Positions 3,598-56,343 of a DNA stretch of 64,000 bases are shown piece after piece (the stretch's first letter is position 1; the number at the start of each line of letters is the position of its first letter). The notes beneath the pieces were generated by a model. That model saw nothing but the letters and a program-made list of their open reading frames with translations, made no database searches and was not told the DNA's origin. This stretch comes from Halobacteriales archaeon QS_6_71_20. GTDB lineage: Archaea > Halobacteriota > Halobacteria > Halobacteriales > Haloferacaceae. The stretch is taken from NCBI GenBank assembly GCA_003020945.1, contig PXRU01000003.1:72947-136946 (forward strand), written 5' to 3'. The position numbers were made by a program, and so were the translations under genes.

Positions 3598-4452
3598 TCA
3601 GCCCCGTCGATGGCTCGCGTACGTCCGGAGACGATATCCCACGTGACCCGCCGCGAACGCCGCCGCGGCACACGCCCAGAACACGAGGACGAACGGAAGG
3701 AGGAAGACGCCGAACAGCCACACCCCCAGCGCGAGGGCGAACGTGCCGGCAGTAACTGCGAGCAGCACCGCACCGACCCCCCAGCCGACCAGCAGGGAGC
3801 CGAGGGGTGAACTCGCGGCGACCGGGTCGGCGACGATGGCGTCGACGGCACGCCCGGCAGCGACCCGAAGCGACACGCCGTCGGCCTGCAGCGCGAACGG
3901 GACGGTCGTCCCGCCGACTCCGGCGACCGCCGCGGCACCGACGACGGTGACCACGACCGCGCCACCGAGCGCCGGCGAAAACACCAGTTGAACCAGCCCG
4001 TACGGCGAGAAGATCAGCGCGGTCGGCAGGAGGGGAACCGCGAGCGCAGGGACCGCCACGGCGACCCACCCGAGCGTTCCGGTCACGTTCGTCTCGGGGG
4101 CGTCGACGAGTGCGCGGACGACCAGCAGGTCCAGTCCGACGACGCTCGCCGCGAACGCGAGCGGGAACGTGGACAGTACGAGGAGGGACAGAACCGAGCC
4201 GACTCGACTGTCGAACGCCGACACCCCGAGGACCGCGGCGATCGCCGCGACCCCGCCCGCGAGCGAGAACGGAGCGAACACGGCGGCGATCGCGCTGCCG
4301 GCGACGACGAGAGCGTACGCGGTTCCGACGAGAAACACCAGCGCGAGGTTGTCTCGGATACCCCCGCGTTCAGCCGGCCCCGTCGACCCGAGACCGGACT
4401 CGCCGTGCGTTCCGCAGCGTCGCCGCTCCGGTGCGCCGTCACCGCGGTTCAT
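3598..4452 (-). CDS. Hypothetical multi-pass membrane protein
   Basis: 284-aa hydrophobic ORF; TTTTATA box on the minus strand at ~4474-4480. Confidence 0.65.
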   Translation of the reverse strand: MNRGDGAPERRRCGTHGESGLGSTGPAERGGIRDNLALVFLVGTAYALVVAGSAIAAVFAPFSLAGGVAAIAAVLGVSAFDSRVGSVLSLLVLSTFPLAFAASVVGLDLLVVRALVDAPETNVTGTLGWVAVAVPALAVPLLPTALIFSPYGLVQLVFSPALGGAVVVTVVGAAAVAGVGGTTVPFALQADGVSLRVAAGRAVDAIVADPVAASSPLGSLLVGWGVGAVLLAVTAGTFALALGVWLFGVFLLPFVLVFWACAAAAFAAGHVGYRLRTYASHRRG

Positions 4453-4712
4453 GATCGGTGCACACCTACGGGGTATAAAAGGGTAGCGTGCCGGCAGTTA
4501 CCGATCGGTCGGGGAGCCGGATGCGAGGTTTGAAATCGGAAGCCGGGACCACGGCGACGCGTGCGGTAACGACGACCGCGCGCCGTCGCGCGAACGTCCG
4601 GAGCCGGCCGGCGCGCGAACCGAACAGGCTCCGGTGTCAGCCCCCGAGTGAGATCCGGCTCCGAACCCGGCTCAGACGCCGACGGCCGACGCGCCGCCAC
4701 GGGGCCGGCTCC

Positions 4713-49391: not shown

Positions 49392-51897
49392 ATGGACTCC
49401 ACCGAGAGCCTCCCGTCGCGGGCGGACACGGTCATCGTCGGCGCGGGGATCGTCGGCTGTAACGTCGCGTATCAACTGACGAAGCTCGGACGTGAGAACG
49501 TGGTCGTCGTCGACCAGGGTCCGATGCCCACGACCGGCGGCTCCTCGACGCACGCGCCGGGTATCATGTTTCAGACGGCGGAACCGAAGACGCTCAGCCA
49601 GTTCGCGAACTACAGCCGGAAGCTCTACACCGACCTCGAAGGCGCGGACGGCCGACAGGCGTACAACGAGACGGGCGGCATCGAGGTGGCCCGCAGCGAG
49701 GAGCGGATGGCGTTCCTCCAGCGCCGGGTCGAACACGCGAAGGCGTGGGGGATCGAGGACCCGCAGCTGCTCTCGCCCGAGGAGGTCACCGACCACCTCC
49801 CGCTCGTCGACGAGAGCCGGATACTGGGCGGCTACTACTCGCCGACGGACGGGCAGGTGTCCGGCGTCGTGGCGTGTGACGCGCTGGCCCGCGAGGCCAT
49901 CGACCGTGGCGCGACGTTCGTGCCACACACCCGCACCGAGGACGTTCGAACCGAGGGCGGGTCGGTGGAGGGCGTCGTCACCGAGAACGGCACCATCGAG
50001 TGCGACGAGGTGGTCGTGGCGACGAACATCTGGGCGCGTCAACTCGGCGAGAAGCTCGGCGTCCACCTGCCGGTGACGCCGGTCGAACACCAGTACACGA
50101 TGACCGAATCGCTGGATGAACTCGCCGACGGCGCGGTCGACGTGACCGACCACCCGCTGTTCGAGAACTACGAGAACGTCTCCGGCGAGAAGGCGAAACG
50201 GCTGTTGGTCGGGCCCGACCGGCCCATCCTGCGCGACCAGGACAACGCGATGTACTTCCGAACCCACGGCGACTCCTACGGCATCGGCTCGTACAACCAC
50301 GAGCCGGTCGTGCCGGACCCGCAGGAGCTGGGCGGCAACACGGCGGACGGACAGGGGTCGGTCCACGAGTTCACCGAGCAGCACATGAACTCGGCGACCC
50401 ACCCCGACCGCCCGCACAAGCCACCCCGGCAGGCCAGCGACGAACTGCTGCCGGCGACCGCGGGCAAGGAGTTGGAGTTCAGCTACAACGGGATGTTCGC
50501 GGAGTCGCCCAACGGCCTGCCCGTGATGGGCCCGGTGCAGGAGTACGACGGCCTCTGGACGGCCGCGGCCATCTGGGTCACGCACGCCGGCGGCGCGGCG
50601 AAGGCGCTCGCGGAGTGGATGGAGACGGGCGTGCCGAGGCTCGACGACGGGCCGATCGACCTCGCGCACTGTGACGTGAACCGGTTCGACGACCACGAGG
50701 GGAGCTGGGACTTCGCCCGCGACATCGGCGGGGAGGAGTACCGCATCGTCTACAACGTCATGCACCCGAAGTGGGTGTGGACCGAGCAACAGCGGGACAT
50801 CCGGCGCACGCCGATGTATCACACCCACGAGGAGATGGGCGCGGAGCTGTGGGCCGAGGCCGGCTGGGAGGAGCCGCAGTGGTTCGAGTCGAACGCCGAC
50901 CTCGTCGACCGCTACGCCGACCGGATACCCGACCGCGACGGCTGGGAGGGGCAGTACTGGTCGCCGATCGAGGGCGCGGAGGCGCTCCACGTCCGCAACG
51001 CCGTCGGTCTCCACGACATGACCTCGTTCAACAAGATGGAGGTGGTCGGCTCCGAGGCGGGCGCGTTCGTCCAACGACTGTGTACGAACGACATGGACCT
51101 CGACGTCGGCGAGGTGAAGTACACCCTGATGTGCAACGAGGGCGGCGGTGTCCGCGCGGACATCACCGTCACGCGCACCGACGAGAACCGGTACCTCCTC
51201 CTGACGACCGGCCGCGAGGTCGGGAACAACCACGTCGCGTGGGTGCGCGAGCAGTCGCCCGAGGGCGTCGTCGTCACCGACGCGACCTCCAGTCTGGCCG
51301 CGATGGTGTGTACCGGCCCCGACGCGCGGAAGGTGCTCTCGGAGGTGACCGACGTCGATCTCTCCGACGAGGCGTTCCCGTTCTTCACCAGCCAGCAGTT
51401 CTTCGTGAAGAACGTGCCCGTCACGGCGTTGCGGGTCTCGTACGCCGGCGAACTCGGCTGGGAGCTGTACACGCCCTCCGAGTACGGCGAACGGCTCTGG
51501 GAGCACGTCCTCGAAGCCGGCGCGGAGTACGACATCCGGCCGTACGGCAACGGCGCGCTCGACTCGCTGCGCATCGAGAAGGGGTTCCGGCTGTGGGGGA
51601 AAGACCTCCACACGGAACACACGCCCGCCGAGGCCGGTCTCGGCTGGGCCGTCGACATGGACACCGACTTCATCGGCAAGGACGCGCTAGACGGTGCTCG
51701 ACAACCGGCCCGTGTTTACACCCGAGGGTGACGAGTCGCTCGGCTACGTCCACAGCGCGGAGTACGGCTACACGGCGGGTGCCTGCGTCGCCTACACCTA
51801 CCTCCCGCCGGAGTACGCGGAACCAGGCACCGACCTGGAGATCCTCTTCGAGGGCGACCGCTACGCGGCGACGGTGCGCGAGGAGCCGCTCGTGTAA
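49392..51897 (+). pseudogene. DMG/sarcosine dehydrogenase-like FAD/THF protein (paralog 1), frameshifted by an apparent ~60-nt deletion near 51690
   Basis: GAGIVG FAD motif, GGSSTHAPG, GcvT domain; main frame stops at 51731 while the C-terminal domain continues in another frame (51694-51897, ...EEPLV*). Confidence 0.8.
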
Positions 51898-52291
51898 ACT
51901 ACCCCGTCCTACTCGCTCCCTCCCGCCTTGCGGCGGTCGGTCACTCCTTGAGGACGGGGCTTTACCGAAGCGACATTTGCCCCGCGACCTCATGCGGTTC
52001 GAGAGAGCTTCGCTCTCTCGTCGTCACGAAAGGCGCGAAGCGCCTTTCGAACGGCATGGACGCGGCCCGGCTTCCTCCTGCCGTTCCACGGTGGAGGCGG
52101 CGGGTCGGAGCAGTGCTGCGACCCACGCTTCCCGGACCTGTGCCGTGGACTGTCCCGCCGGTTTGATTCCCGGTGTTCTCGCGCTCCATCCCCAAGCGGG
52201 GAACGGGAGTCCACCCCGTTCGCGGTCGTCGTTCCCGAGTATAGGGTGCGACGGCGTTGCCGTCGCACCGCGGGTGCCAGTTTACTCGTGG
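51894..52291 (-). ncRNA. Putative OMEGA (omega/reRNA-like) scaffold; strand inferred
   Basis: Run of perfect hairpins (52000-52020, 52027-52049, 52201-52221, 52245-52269) ending in the RE hairpin with a GCAA loop on minus. Confidence 0.5.
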
Positions 52292-53442
52292 AGAGCGTGT
52301 CATAGAATAGTTCTCGCACCCTTCGAGTGACGATCCGATGAGCGGTAAATACAGGAGGTGTACGTAACAGGCCTGGTCACTCCGTTGACTTAGAAGGTTG
52401 TCTTTGAATGTCGATTGTCACTGGCCGAGCGTCTCGTCTCATGTGTCTGTATCCGAGCGCGATTAGTATTCCAGAGACCGCAGCAACCGGGACAAATGAC
52501 GGGACTGCGGACGGATCGAAGGGCACCACCGTGGCGTTGCCGAACCCGTGAACGAAGCCGGCGTACCACACGTTCTGCGTCAGATAGTAGATGACACCGT
52601 AGGTGATCCCCGGAATTAGGTTCCCCAGGATGATCAACGGGATCGCGGTTGGGGGTACGCCTTCCAGCAATAGCCCGATGGGAATATGCGCGACGCCGAA
52701 CAAGACCGCTCCACCGAGAATCCCGACTGTGGCGGACAGTCCATGCGAGCGAGAACTCACAAGCGCGGTACATTTGTTCTGCACGTATCCCCGGAAGACG
52801 AACTCCTCAGTGAGCCCGTTCGAGACGGTGAGTGTGAGTAGAAACCAGATCGGAACCCAGTACCACGGCATATCGAAGGCAAAGCCGAGTTGTGCGGTCG
52901 CTCCCGTGACGACGAGATATCCCACGCCGACGATGCTAACCCATCCCCAGAGGACTCCGAACGCGACGACCGCGGGCAGGAACGTCGATCTACTGAGGCC
53001 GACAGCGGACGCTGAAACGCCCTCATACCGAAGCACGCCCCAAGTACCAAGAATGAGAATCAGCATGAACGGAAAGCTTAGGATGGCCGACAGATGTTTC
53101 GGATATTCCGACGACTCAGGGCCCAAAACCGCCGTGTGAGCGGTCACCGAGGCAGCCGCGACAATACTCACGAATGAAACGAGCGCAACGAGAGGGACCA
53201 AACTGGGAATGAAACGGAGGTGACGTGGTGATGTGCTCATGCGTCTGTGGTCTCGACAGTAGAGTAATAAAATATTTCGAGGATAGATGAGGAAGCTGTT
53301 AACTTCTGTAATCATCAGCGAGGACCTGCTGGTCACCTCGGAACCCACTACTGGCTTGGTAAGTTCACAATCCCGCGTAACGGTTGATATACTCTGTCTC
53401 GTGTGAAAGGAACTGCTGTGTGAACCCTTCTATGACACGCTC
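52292..53442. mobile_element. TIR-bounded non-autonomous mini-transposon carrying a passenger gene
   Basis: 26-bp TIRs (22/26 match, outer 15 bp perfect: GAGCGTGTCATAGAA) at 52293-52318 and 53417-53442; direct repeat CGTGG at 52287-52291 and 53443-53447. Confidence 0.85.
52377..53240 (-). CDS. CPBP/CAAX-family intramembrane glutamic metalloprotease
   Basis: EEFVFRGY, FGVAH, HGFGN motifs; multi-TM; visibly AT-richer than the flanks. Confidence 0.9.
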   Translation of the reverse strand: MSTSPRHLRFIPSLVPLVALVSFVSIVAAASVTAHTAVLGPESSEYPKHLSAILSFPFMLILILGTWGVLRYEGVSASAVGLSRSTFLPAVVAFGVLWGWVSIVGVGYLVVTGATAQLGFAFDMPWYWVPIWFLLTLTVSNGLTEEFVFRGYVQNKCTALVSSRSHGLSATVGILGGAVLFGVAHIPIGLLLEGVPPTAIPLIILGNLIPGITYGVIYYLTQNVWYAGFVHGFGNATVVPFDPSAVPSFVPVAAVSGILIALGYRHMRRDARPVTIDIQRQPSKSTE

Positions 53443-53790
53443 CGTGGCACCTACTATCCCGAACTTACACCGGGGTAGTAGTGTTCAGAAAATAGCCGGA
53501 AGAAAGCTAATTCTTTCGATACCGACGGTTGCCCGGATGATGACGGCGATCCCTCTCCTCCCTACTCGCGCCTTCGGCGCTCGTTGAGGAAGGAGGCTCC
53601 TCGCGTATGAACGCTGAGTCGTATCGCCCGCCTGTCAGGCTGTGGGCGTGGGCGGGCGGTCGCGGGCGTGACACCGCGACGGATGGCTTTCGGACGAAAC
53701 GCCACGTAGAACAGTTCTCGACGCAGTTTTCGGTGATTCGACACCCGCTTTACCGGTGTATTTATCCCCGCGACAACCGCGGAACGTGCC

Positions 53791-56343
53791 ATGAGCGGTG
53801 GAAAACTCCCTACGAAGGCGGAGACGGTGGTCATCGGTGCCGGCGCCGTCGGCTGTAGCGTCGCCTACCATCTGACCGAACTCGGCGCGGAGGACGTGGT
53901 CGTCGTCGATCAGGGACCGCTCCCGGTCACGGGCGGGTCGTCCGTCCACGCGCCGGGTATCGTGTTCCAGACGTCCCCCTCGAAGATACAGACGAAGGCC
54001 GCCTACTACACCAGTCGGCTGCTGTCGGACGCCGGCGTGTACGACGAGGTCGGCGGCATCGAGGTCGCCCGCAGCGAGGAGCGGATGGACTTCCTCCGCC
54101 GGCGCGTGGAGTGGGCGACGGCCTACGGCCTACCGGAGCCACAGCTGCTCTCGCCGGAGGAGGTCACCGACCGCCTCCCGATGGTCGACGAGTCGGAGAT
54201 ACTCGGCGGCTACTACTCGCCGACGGACGGCCGCGTCGACGGCATCGGCGCGCTCCAGTGGTACATGGAGCAGTCGCCGGCCGCCTTCTACGGAGAGACG
54301 GAGGTCGAGGACATCGACGTGGCGGGCGGCGAGGTGAACGCGATCGAGACCGACCGTGGACGCATCGACTGCGAACGGTGCGTCATCGCCACCAACAACT
54401 GGGGCTACCAGACCGGGCAGCTGGCGGGACTCGATCTACCCATCGCGCCGGTCGAACACCAGTACGTCGTCACGGAGCCGATGGACGAGCTCGCGGGGTT
54501 CGACACTTCCGTCGGCGACAACACAACCGGATTGGACGTGCCCGGCGACCGCTCCATCGCCGAGTACATGAGCGAGGGGCCGACGCTCCCCGTCGGCCGG
54601 GACCAGGACCACTCGCTGTACTTCCGCAACCACGGCGACGCGCTCGGCATGGGGTCGTACAACCACGAGACGCTCTCGGTCGACCCCGAAGCGATGGGGA
54701 CGAACAGCGAGCAGCGACAGGCCTCCGTCAGGGGGTTCTCGCGGGAGCACTGGGAGCGGCCCACCCACCGCGGCCGCGACAAGTCCGCCAAGCGGGCGTT
54801 CGACGAACTCCTCCCGGCCACCGAGGACGTCGAGTACGAGGCGACGGAGAACGGCATCTTCGTGTTCACGCCCGACGGGATGCCCGCCGTCGGCCCGACC
54901 GCGGCCGTCGACGGGCTGTGGACAGGGCTCGCCGTCTGGTGGACCCACTCGGGCGGCTACGGTCGCATCCTCGCCGAGTGGATGGAGAACGGCGTCCCGC
55001 GGCTCCCCTCGGGACCGGTGGACACGGGCGGCATCCACGTCCGCCGGTTCGGCCCCCACGCCGGCGAGAAGGACTACTTCGTCGACCGCGGGGGGAGACG
55101 CTACGAGCAGGTGTACAGCATCGTCGAGCCGCGCTGGCAGCCCGACGACCACCGCGGCCTCCGGACGAGTCCGTTCTACCACCGTCAACAGGAGTTGGGC
55201 GCGGAGTTCTATCAGGCGGGCGGCTGGGAGTCGCCGCAGTGGTACGAGTCGAACGCCGACCTCGTCGACCGCTACGCGAACCGGATCCCCGAACAGGACG
55301 GCTGGCAGGCGATCAACCGCTCGGAGATCGAGGCGGCCGAACATCTCCACACCCGCGAGCAGGTCTCGATGTTCGACATGACCACGTTCTCCTCGATCAT
55401 GGTGGAGGGGCCGGACGCGGAGGCGTATCTCCAGCGGGTCTGCTCGAACGACGTGGCCATCGACGAGGGGCAGGTGCGCTACTCGCTGCTGTTGAACGAG
55501 GGCGGCGGCATCCTCGCGGACGTGACGGTCGTCCGGCTGGACGACGAGCGGTACATGATGACGACCGGCGGCGGCAACTCGCCGGGCATCCACGGCGGCT
55601 GGCTGGCCGACCACGCCCCCGAGACCGTCTCCGTCCACGTCGAGGAAGGCGCGAAGTCGACCATCGGGTTGTGGGGGCCGAAGTCGCGGCTCCTGCTCCA
55701 GCGGTGTACGGACGCCGACGTGACGAACGAGGGGTTCCCGTACTTCACGGCGAAGCGGATCTACGTCGGCGAGGTGCCGGTCGTCGCGCTCCGTGTCTCC
55801 TACGTGGGTGAACTCGGCTGGGAGCTGTGGGCCCCGACCGAGTACGGCCGGCGGCTCTGGGACACCCTCTGGGAGGCGGGGCAGGACCTCGACGTGCGGC
55901 CGATGGGCGGCGGCGCGCTGAGTTCGATGCGGCTCGAGAAGGGGTTCCGGCTGTGGGGGACGGATATCGACACGGACGCCAACCCCTTCGAGGCCGGTCT
56001 CCCCTTCGCCGTCGACATGGACACCGACTTCGTCGGCAAGGACGCGCTGGAGGCCGCCCGCGCCGACGGGGTCGACAGCCGAGCGACGCCGCTCACGCTC
56101 GACAACTCGACCGACATCATGCTGAGTGGCCGACCCGTCCTGAAAGACGGCGAGGCCATCGGCTACGTGCAGGCCGGGAACTACGGCTACACGATCGGCG
56201 AATCCATCGCGTACACCTACGTGCCGAGCGAGCACGCCGAGGCCGGCACCTCGGTCCGGATACGGTGTGAGGGCGAGACGTATGACGCGACGGTTCGGGA
56301 CGAGCCGCTGTTCGACCCCGGCCGTGAGAAGATCCTTCGATGA
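53791..56343 (+). CDS. DMG/sarcosine dehydrogenase-like FAD/THF protein (paralog 2, intact)
   Basis: GAGAVG, GGSSVHAPG, FDMTTFS, RVSYVGELGWE, RLEKGFRLWG, EPLFDP. Confidence 0.93.
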   Translation: MSGGKLPTKAETVVIGAGAVGCSVAYHLTELGAEDVVVVDQGPLPVTGGSSVHAPGIVFQTSPSKIQTKAAYYTSRLLSDAGVYDEVGGIEVARSEERMDFLRRRVEWATAYGLPEPQLLSPEEVTDRLPMVDESEILGGYYSPTDGRVDGIGALQWYMEQSPAAFYGETEVEDIDVAGGEVNAIETDRGRIDCERCVIATNNWGYQTGQLAGLDLPIAPVEHQYVVTEPMDELAGFDTSVGDNTTGLDVPGDRSIAEYMSEGPTLPVGRDQDHSLYFRNHGDALGMGSYNHETLSVDPEAMGTNSEQRQASVRGFSREHWERPTHRGRDKSAKRAFDELLPATEDVEYEATENGIFVFTPDGMPAVGPTAAVDGLWTGLAVWWTHSGGYGRILAEWMENGVPRLPSGPVDTGGIHVRRFGPHAGEKDYFVDRGGRRYEQVYSIVEPRWQPDDHRGLRTSPFYHRQQELGAEFYQAGGWESPQWYESNADLVDRYANRIPEQDGWQAINRSEIEAAEHLHTREQVSMFDMTTFSSIMVEGPDAEAYLQRVCSNDVAIDEGQVRYSLLLNEGGGILADVTVVRLDDERYMMTTGGGNSPGIHGGWLADHAPETVSVHVEEGAKSTIGLWGPKSRLLLQRCTDADVTNEGFPYFTAKRIYVGEVPVVALRVSYVGELGWELWAPTEYGRRLWDTLWEAGQDLDVRPMGGGALSSMRLEKGFRLWGTDIDTDANPFEAGLPFAVDMDTDFVGKDALEAARADGVDSRATPLTLDNSTDIMLSGRPVLKDGEAIGYVQAGNYGYTIGESIAYTYVPSEHAEAGTSVRIRCEGETYDATVRDEPLFDPGREKILR

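Follow-up and report, generated by a model that had tools for sequence, protein, structure and literature searches.

What fills the gap between two adjacent paralogous genes of a haloarchaeon, and what has its arrival done to the gene whose 3′ end it interrupts? The 64,000-nucleotide (nt) stretch of Halobacteriales archaeon QS_6_71_20 analyzed here (contig PXRU01000003.1, positions 72,947 to 136,946; hereafter the window) carries a gene for a GcvT-family FAD oxidoreductase, referred to as the host gene, which is followed by a paralogue on the same strand. The two genes are separated by 1893 nt in the window versus approximately 150–300 nt in relatives and 181 nt in the closest ones, indicating that an insertion of approximately 1.7 kb is real. 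A first-pass annotation, made from the letters of the window alone, had read it as a silent mobile element whose RNA would be guided to the empty allele of the host gene. We found that the locus is best explained by a transposase-free palindrome-associated transposable element (PATE) of the TnpB lineage, which inserted at a C/TGA stop codon (a slash marks an insertion point throughout), later received a second mobile unit, and specifies a putative guide to its own empty site. Taken as a whole, this account is very probable.

Both occupied and empty versions of the locus were recovered. A metagenome contig from the European Nucleotide Archive (ENA) (L077), 99.6% identical to the window, carries the same insertion, which is therefore present in a second strain. 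Three metagenome contigs of the Joint Genome Institute (JGI) (L078–L080), retrieved by a search with the repaired host protein and not by exact DNA matching, show the same synteny with the two genes 181 nt apart; they are 97% identical to the window in the host protein (C-terminal 432 residues searched) and 92–93.5% identical in DNA. These empty alleles read ...GAGCCGCTCGT/CTGAGTTCG..., with the junction CTCGT/CTGAG; taken over other extents, the same junction reads GCCGCTCGT/CTGAGTTCGCTCGTCGTATCGCC, GTGCGCGAGGAGCCGCTCGT/CTGAGTTCGCTCGTCGTATCGCC, or CTCGTCTGAG. When the window was aligned with them by BLAST, the match ended at 51893 and restarted at 53618 past an 8-nt indel. The CTGA read directly in the empty alleles corresponds to 53614–53617 of the window and fixes the far boundary of the element at 53613, and no bases are duplicated at the insertion point. 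On these alignments, the element is placed at 51894–53613 (1720 nt). The left boundary of the first-pass annotation (51894) was thereby confirmed, also by approximately 35 family copies that end in GGGGTAGTTTAC on the minus strand, whereas its right boundary (53606) proved 7 nt short. A boundary after TCAGC was considered as well and rejected, because it would add a 33-codon extension and the empty alleles place the cleavage after TCAG. A variable-gap pattern for the empty site (GCGCGAGGAGCCGCTCGT N{0,30} GTCGTATCGCCCGCC) gave no matches in the JGI metagenomes; it missed the real empty alleles because these have 8 extra nt and differences at nearby bases. An exact look-up of the downstream paralogue returned no record. 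The 8 nt in question (GTTCGCTC) are present in all three empty alleles and missing from the window just to the right of CTGA (53617–53618), and the more distantly related Halosegnis contig L081 carries 11 nt at this place. This loss is derived and lies outside the element, adjoining the motif.

The empty alleles also show what happened to the end of the host gene. The TGA at 53615–53617 is the original host stop codon, which now lies beyond the far side of the element. In the occupied allele, where window positions 51874–51897 read GTGCGCGAGGAGCCGCTCGTGTAA, the host reading frame ends ...REEPLV-stop with the codons CTC GTG TAA, and this TAA (51895–51897) is provided by the inserted element. 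GTC TGA in the empty allele is thus swapped for GTG TAA, and both alleles end EPLV-stop, so that the insertion is silent, leaving the end of the host protein unchanged. Six orthologues from relatives end in EPLV, EPLL, EPLLD, or EPIHGG, indicating that a short C terminus is native to the host gene. The first-pass annotation had read the occupied end correctly and had deduced a silent insertion; its arithmetic is also right in that deletion of 51894–53606 gives CTC GTA TGA. The silent outcome therefore stood, but the route to it did not, since the predicted junction CTCGTATGAA is absent from the six orthologues compared and from the real empty alleles. Boundaries guessed from one copy had been several bases off and yet had yielded a plausible-looking junction.

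The element belongs to a widespread family. Its right-end module (51894–52291, approximately 400 nt) is non-coding and is 82–85% identical to approximately 480-nt PATE-like copies on plasmids of Natrinema, Haladaptatus, and Halobaculum, which sit in stretches without an annotated gene; in these shorter copies, the right-end module joins directly to a short module homologous to window 53448–53613. A scan with a 21-nt core of the right-end module found 46 loci in many haloarchaeal genera, including Saliphagus, Haloarchaeobius, Halegenticoccus, Natrinema, Haladaptatus, Halorubrum, and Halobaculum, as well as metagenome-assembled genomes. On the minus strand, all of the approximately 35 copies with a detectable right end finish in the shared terminus given above and then run into unrelated flanks. 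The left end, alignable in 32 copies, consists of an unrelated flank, a TCAG motif, 18 conserved nt, and a hairpin (consensus, CAAGCGGTAGCGCGGAGCC; window, CGTTCATACGCGAGGAGCC). The motif is TCAG in 29 and TCGG in 3 of these 32 copies, its T, C, and G being invariant, and is directly preceded by T in 20 of them, as in the CTCAG found here. TTCAT (plus-strand ATGAA), which the first-pass annotation had taken for the flanking motif, turned out to be bases 3–7 of the left end of the element itself, counted from the C after TCAG, and the ATGAA at 53607–53611 accordingly lies within the left-end module. The subterminal hairpins at approximately 51901–51960 and 53537–53596 are related in sequence and directly oriented, with no terminal inverted repeats. 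No transposase or nuclease open reading frame (ORF) was detected in the element, whose sole Pfam-positive ORF is the CPBP gene of a nested cassette described below. Because it has no terminal inverted repeats, target duplication, or transposase ORF, the element is classified as a non-autonomous IS200/IS605 element, that is, a PATE of the TnpB/IS1341 lineage.

The TnpB affiliation is seen at both ends. The same genome carries an intact TnpB element (L003; 435 amino acids; NF040570 guided_TnpB, 161.9 bits) that shares its flanking motif and right-end terminus with the PATE; the left ends are approximately 80% identical over 53 nt, and at the right end the last 65 nt or so align. The right-end terminus is also common to a DUF2080+TnpB element in L026 (Haladaptatus). 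Since the ends are homologous to those of TnpB-encoding elements, the minus strand is the functional one, as the first-pass annotation had assumed. Its alternative, an IscB-type RNA on the plus strand, found no backing: there is no IscB or HNH match, and the end at 53613 corresponds by homology to the end of TnpB elements that lies upstream of tnpB, the left one. We are highly confident about the identity and origin of the element. When five TnpBs were compared with the PATE by tblastn, nothing significant was found for the window copy; the lone match below E = 0.01 was of the L002 TnpB, over 55 residues, to the opposite strand of the family copy L046 (E = 5.6e-4). By eye only, a decayed '...SPVLKE...' C-terminal motif can be seen beside the right end.

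The sequence directly outside the right end behaves as a guide to the empty site. The 20-nt minus-strand sequence ACGAGCGGCTCCTCGCGCAC, put forward as the guide by the first-pass annotation, agrees with the empty alleles at all 20 positions in L078 and L079 and at 19 of 20 in L080. CTCAG followed by these 20 nt is present in L078 and L079, whereas in the window the same 20 nt follow TTTAC. Among the alleles compared, the putative guide and its flanking motif are thus joined in the empty allele only, as had been predicted. This is a standard property of IS200/IS605 elements and is already known (PMC10055086). An 11-nt perfect inverted repeat was also noticed between the guide region (51877–51887, CGCGAGGAGCC, host codons R-E-E-P) and the left end (53595–53605, GGCTCCTCGCG). 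The left-end segment of this match (GCGAGGAGCC) is conserved family-wide, and the right-end flanks of other copies have no such match, so the complementarity is probably due to chance.

The presumed RNA upstream of this guide was examined by fold analysis of twelve non-redundant family copies aligned on the minus strand. Their consensus structure contains 76 predicted pairs, with 97.4% of cells paired. Compensatory changes occur in 11 pairs compared with 4.0 ± 1.3 in shuffled alignments (0 of 500 reached 11) and 0–3 in slid controls, and numerous G-U pairs are valid on the minus strand only. The long-range helices are invariant and so are neither supported nor contradicted by covariation. Together with a length of approximately 350–400 nt and an identity of approximately 80% across many genera and copies, these data point to a conserved, covarying scaffold with a predicted structure resembling that of an omega RNA. 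Rfam family RF02656 (sot0042; gathering threshold, 88 bits) gave no match at E ≤ 1 in window 51500–54000, whereas a different TnpB element of the same genome, L002, matches it at 111.9 bits (1709–1886, G000:C2). Family RF02984 (DUF3800-X) scored 31.8 bits at 51895–51964 on the minus strand, below its gathering score of 38.2, and the same right-end hairpin in L039 (643–712, minus strand) scored 32.6 bits, likewise sub-threshold; part of this orphan family may consist of IS200/IS605 end hairpins. The scaffold of the window copy further contains a small double-hairpin module (51981–52057), which is present in L046, L049, L066, and L069 and not in shorter family copies. On its own, this module matches stretches without a listed gene on many haloarchaeal plasmids with 80–92% identity. 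PATEs are reported to be targets of tiny mobile hairpin repeats, and the module may be one of these.

The stop-codon swap recurs in the family. The sequence before insertion was reconstructed for 25 independent copies, and a convergent ORF of at least 200 codons was required as host. In 9 of the 25 copies, the TGA that the motif forms on the complementary strand serves as stop codon for such an ORF, compared with 6.8% of all CTGA sites at the same loci (binomial p = 2e-5). Copies on C/TGA stops, which become G-TAA, include L040, L042, L046, L049, L051, L054, L062, and L066. For eight of these ORFs, Pfam gave clear domains, namely MscS, class-V aminotransferase, integrase, helicase C-terminal (PF13307), cupin, GTP cyclohydrolase III, EIIA-man, and DICT. 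In 10 of 11 cases, the insertion leaves the final residue as it was, and in Halobaculum limi, too, the TAA of the element terminates a gene (annotated as DUF1616). By a rough estimate, however, stop-codon sites make up about a quarter of the tolerated insertion sites, so survivorship could explain much of the excess. A stronger version would hold that the end motifs, TCAG flanking the left end and ...GTTTAC terminating the right one, form a matched pair, C-TGA and G-TAA in the same frame on the opposite strand, which makes insertion silent at the stops of convergent genes. Gene 3′ ends would then be safe harbours, from which silent copies and their nested passengers could be driven to fixation by a TnpB acting in trans in a polyploid cell. 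We regard this extension as unlikely. The swap itself is a neat detail that is possibly general for the family, and is new only as a detail.

The remainder of the insertion is a mobile unit within the PATE. A cassette is flanked by a CGTGG duplication (52287–52291 and 53443–53447), and the family alignment is restored once 52292–53442 is taken out. Its G+C content is 55%, compared with 67–69% in the right-end scaffold (51894–52291) and the two neighbouring genes. The CPBP gene is the sole gene of the cassette, which has no transposase; NCBIfam gave only sub-threshold CPBP matches for its product, and the product encoded on L077 is identical. The cassette alone, from repeat to repeat, occurs with 96.6% identity at an unrelated site in a JGI contig (3300021446; L085), where it is flanked by the duplication AGAAT. 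Given this solitary copy and the separate 5-bp duplication that flanks it, the cassette is a mobile unit in its own right that later landed in the PATE rather than cargo captured by it, which overturns the earlier assignment of the CPBP gene to the outer element. A search of the metagenomes for the PATE–cassette junction gave no other matches, and hence no evidence of the composite moving. Most of the close CPBP homologues lie on very short contigs, which fits a mobile unit present in repeated copies. The features of the locus are collected in Table 1.

Table 1. Features of the interrupted locus, in window coordinates
Feature	Position	Strand	Basis
Host gene, GcvT-family FAD oxidoreductase (DAO + FAO_M + GCV_T + GCV_T_C)	49392..51897	+	Pfam domains
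Putative guide template and protospacer; minus strand reads ACGAGCGGCTCCTCGCGCAC, directly 3′ of the element right end	51874..51893	-	
Whole composite element as delimited here, 1720 nt = 564-nt PATE + 1156 nt (nested cassette + one target-duplication copy)	51894..53613	-	Empty-allele junction
Right-end module, conserved structured region resembling an omega-RNA scaffold; ends in terminal hairpin (51895-51964) + motif GTAGTTTAC	51894..52291	-	Family similarity, covariation
Small double-hairpin module in the scaffold (TTCGAAAGGCGC..GCGCCTTTCG and CGAGAGAGC..GCTCTCTCG)	51981..52057	.	Alignment gap
Nested mobile cassette, 1151 nt, 26-nt terminal inverted repeats 52293-52318 / 53417-53442	52292..53442	-	
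CPBP/Rce1-like intramembrane protease gene, 287 amino acids	52377..53240	-	Pfam PF02517, E = 5.5e-16
Left-end module of the PATE, subterminal hairpin ~53537-53596; minus strand begins CGTTCATACGCGAGGAGCC	53448..53613	-	Family alignment; homology to L003 left end
Target / transposon-adjacent motif (TAM) TCAG (plus-strand CTGA)	53614..53617	-	Family copies + empty alleles
Downstream paralogue of the host gene, 850 amino acids; synteny anchor for the empty alleles	53791..56343	+	

How such an element would arise and persist can be proposed from known systems. IS200/IS605 elements produce an RNA that runs out of the right end and by which TnpB is led to its target, the donor joint or the empty allele, and PATEs often encode omega RNAs for which TnpB is required in trans (Meers et al. 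2023, PMC10055086). In the present case, a TnpA-type single-strand 'peel-and-paste' reaction would have inserted a circle 3′ of TCAG without duplication. As the motif on the plus strand is the C/TGA ending the host gene, the plus-strand right end of the element, GTAAAC, turned the split C TGA into G TAA. A minus-strand RNA would then pass through the scaffold of approximately 400 nt, leave the right end, and carry the guide ACGAGCGGCTCCTCGCGCAC. A compatible TnpB acting in trans could cut empty or excised copies at the TCAG-flanked target, which would regain the element by recombining with an occupied copy; the intact TnpB of L003 is the best candidate for this role, given its shared motif and terminus. 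For IS200/IS605 elements and PATEs, drive of this kind, with TnpB acting in trans, has been put forward in the literature (PMC10055086), and in a polyploid cell it is plausible here. That TnpB actually cuts empty copies in this organism today is possible but doubtful.

The main rival is that the element is an inert relic, a fossil PATE whose guide fits the empty site simply because IS200/IS605 insertion always creates such a match, with no TnpB loading its RNA and no drive; we give this about an even chance. Several observations weigh against the favoured account or speak for a relic. The window PATE is single-copy in its genome, and the composite was found at no second site, either there or in the metagenome search. 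The 1.15-kb cassette sits just upstream of the scaffold, which also contains the extra hairpin insert and has one or two broken pairs in a long-range helix, and the scaffold does not match the haloarchaeal omega-RNA family sot0042. The PATE aligns with L003 at the two ends only, plus one borderline stretch of 55 nt (score 37–39; shuffles, mean 24 ± 3.7, maximum 39), so the L003 TnpB is no more than a candidate partner of the PATE RNA, and the fetched loci contained no TnpB gene that has a matching scaffold at full length. The source of the empty alleles is a sister lineage (92–93.5% DNA identity) rather than the same population, and the insertion is fixed in the two strains that carry it, with no sign of turnover. 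Furthermore, the host gene has since become a probable pseudogene in this assembly, independently of the insertion: after approximately 51688 (51688–51689), it has an 80-nt frameshifting deletion relative to L077 and to orthologues, which have 68–81 nt more at this position, and it is intact in the occupied contig L077. Against a mere fossil stand the scaffold of approximately 350–400 nt, which is approximately 80% identical with compensatory changes across many genera and indicates that the family is under selection for structure, and the fact that the genome contains an intact TnpB element, L003, whose flanking motif and right-end terminus are those of the PATE.

A second rival holds that the structured RNA leaves the right end, covers at least the final 20 nt of the host mRNA, and regulates the host gene as an antisense or sotRNA-like RNA, independently of any nuclease. 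The structure is indeed conserved on the minus strand, the family often lies at the 3′ ends of convergent genes, and haloarchaeal sotRNAs are reported to be functional non-coding RNAs (PMC4615843). However, the flanks differ at every copy, so an antisense function would be incidental, and the end architecture with its TCAG and TTAC motifs is fully explained by transposition; we therefore hold this alternative to be very improbable. The exact model of the first-pass annotation (element 51894–53606, TAM TTCAT or plus-strand ATGAA, junction CTCGTATGAA, and an IscB-type plus-strand alternative) has practically no chance of being right: its arithmetic does give EPLV-stop and orthologues do have a short EPLV or EPLL end, but the real empty alleles read CTCGTCTGAG and not the expected CTCGTATGAACGCTGAG, TTCAT lies inside a left end that is alignable in 32 copies, all with TCAG or TCGG 18 nt before the hairpin, the variable-gap pattern that covers any empty junction had no matches in the JGI metagenomes, and the ends are homologous to those of TnpB elements, with no IscB features found.

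The TnpB-lineage PATE proposed here resembles IS608 and ISDra2 in its insertion 3′ of a 4–5-nt motif without duplication, and it shares the IS608 layout of approximately 18 nt before the left hairpin and approximately 8 nt after the right hairpin; unlike them, it has neither tnpA nor tnpB, and its motif is TCAG. The right end in the window finishes in TTAC, with AAAG just 5′ of the right hairpin, which we take to be the TTAC/AAAG pairing of IS608. Like the ISGst PATEs of Geobacillus stearothermophilus (PMC10055086), it has no protein gene of its own, subterminal hairpins at both ends, a motif by the left end, and a guide that is formed by the right-end flank and finds its match in the empty site or donor joint alone, with TnpA and TnpB required in trans. 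It differs from them in being haloarchaeal and known here from sequence alone, in a motif that is TCAG instead of AT-rich, in a much longer scaffold (approximately 350–400 nt), and in its nested cassette. Haloarchaeal PATEs, and the nesting of mobile elements in them, are described in the PATE passages of Dyall-Smith et al. (2011, PMC3119063). According to these passages, the HqIRS families of Haloquadratum walsbyi, which belong among the haloarchaeal PATEs and IS1341-type elements, are likewise transposase-free, have near-terminal IS605-type palindromes without inverted terminal repeats or target duplication, and are often invaded by small mobile elements; the family in the window is a different sequence family that spans many genera. 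The same passages do not mention a stop-codon preference. The sotRNAs or omega RNAs of Halobacterium IS1341 TnpB elements (RF02656; PMC4615843, PMC12558985) are similar in that a structured RNA lies at the 3′ end on the tnpB strand and ends at the right end, whereas the window element, unlike L002, has no match to that family. The nested 1151-nt unit, for its part, is like mobile insertion cassettes, which have inverted repeats and a passenger gene and no transposase, in its 26-nt repeats, 5-bp duplication, and single CPBP gene.

Some further observations concern the relatives of the element. The genome has four TnpB loci (L002–L005) with at least three end types. In L026 (approximately 4440–4530, Haladaptatus halobius), the left end of a PATE stands head-to-head with the left end of the DUF2080+TnpB element, and in L036 (Halegenticoccus tardaugens), a PATE left end stands head-to-head with that of another hairpin-ended element. 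These junctions are near-palindromic (GCTGAATTG and CAATTCAGC), which suggests overlapping target motifs or a composite unit.

The locus is thus a haloarchaeal TnpB-lineage PATE with a nested cassette, and the mechanism invoked for it is the known TnpB one. The tendency of the family to sit at C/TGA stops, together with the restored TAA, suggests a low-cost way of persisting in gene-dense genomes, although it may be mere survivorship. With occupied and empty alleles both in hand, the locus offers a clean natural case of a PATE that has an omega-RNA-like scaffold and a guide that would point to the element's own empty site; in this group of archaea, TnpB elements are very abundant but little tested. 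It also supplies the exact reagents for a test, namely the TAM TCAG, the guide of 20 nt, the sequence of the donor joint, and a TnpB as candidate effector.

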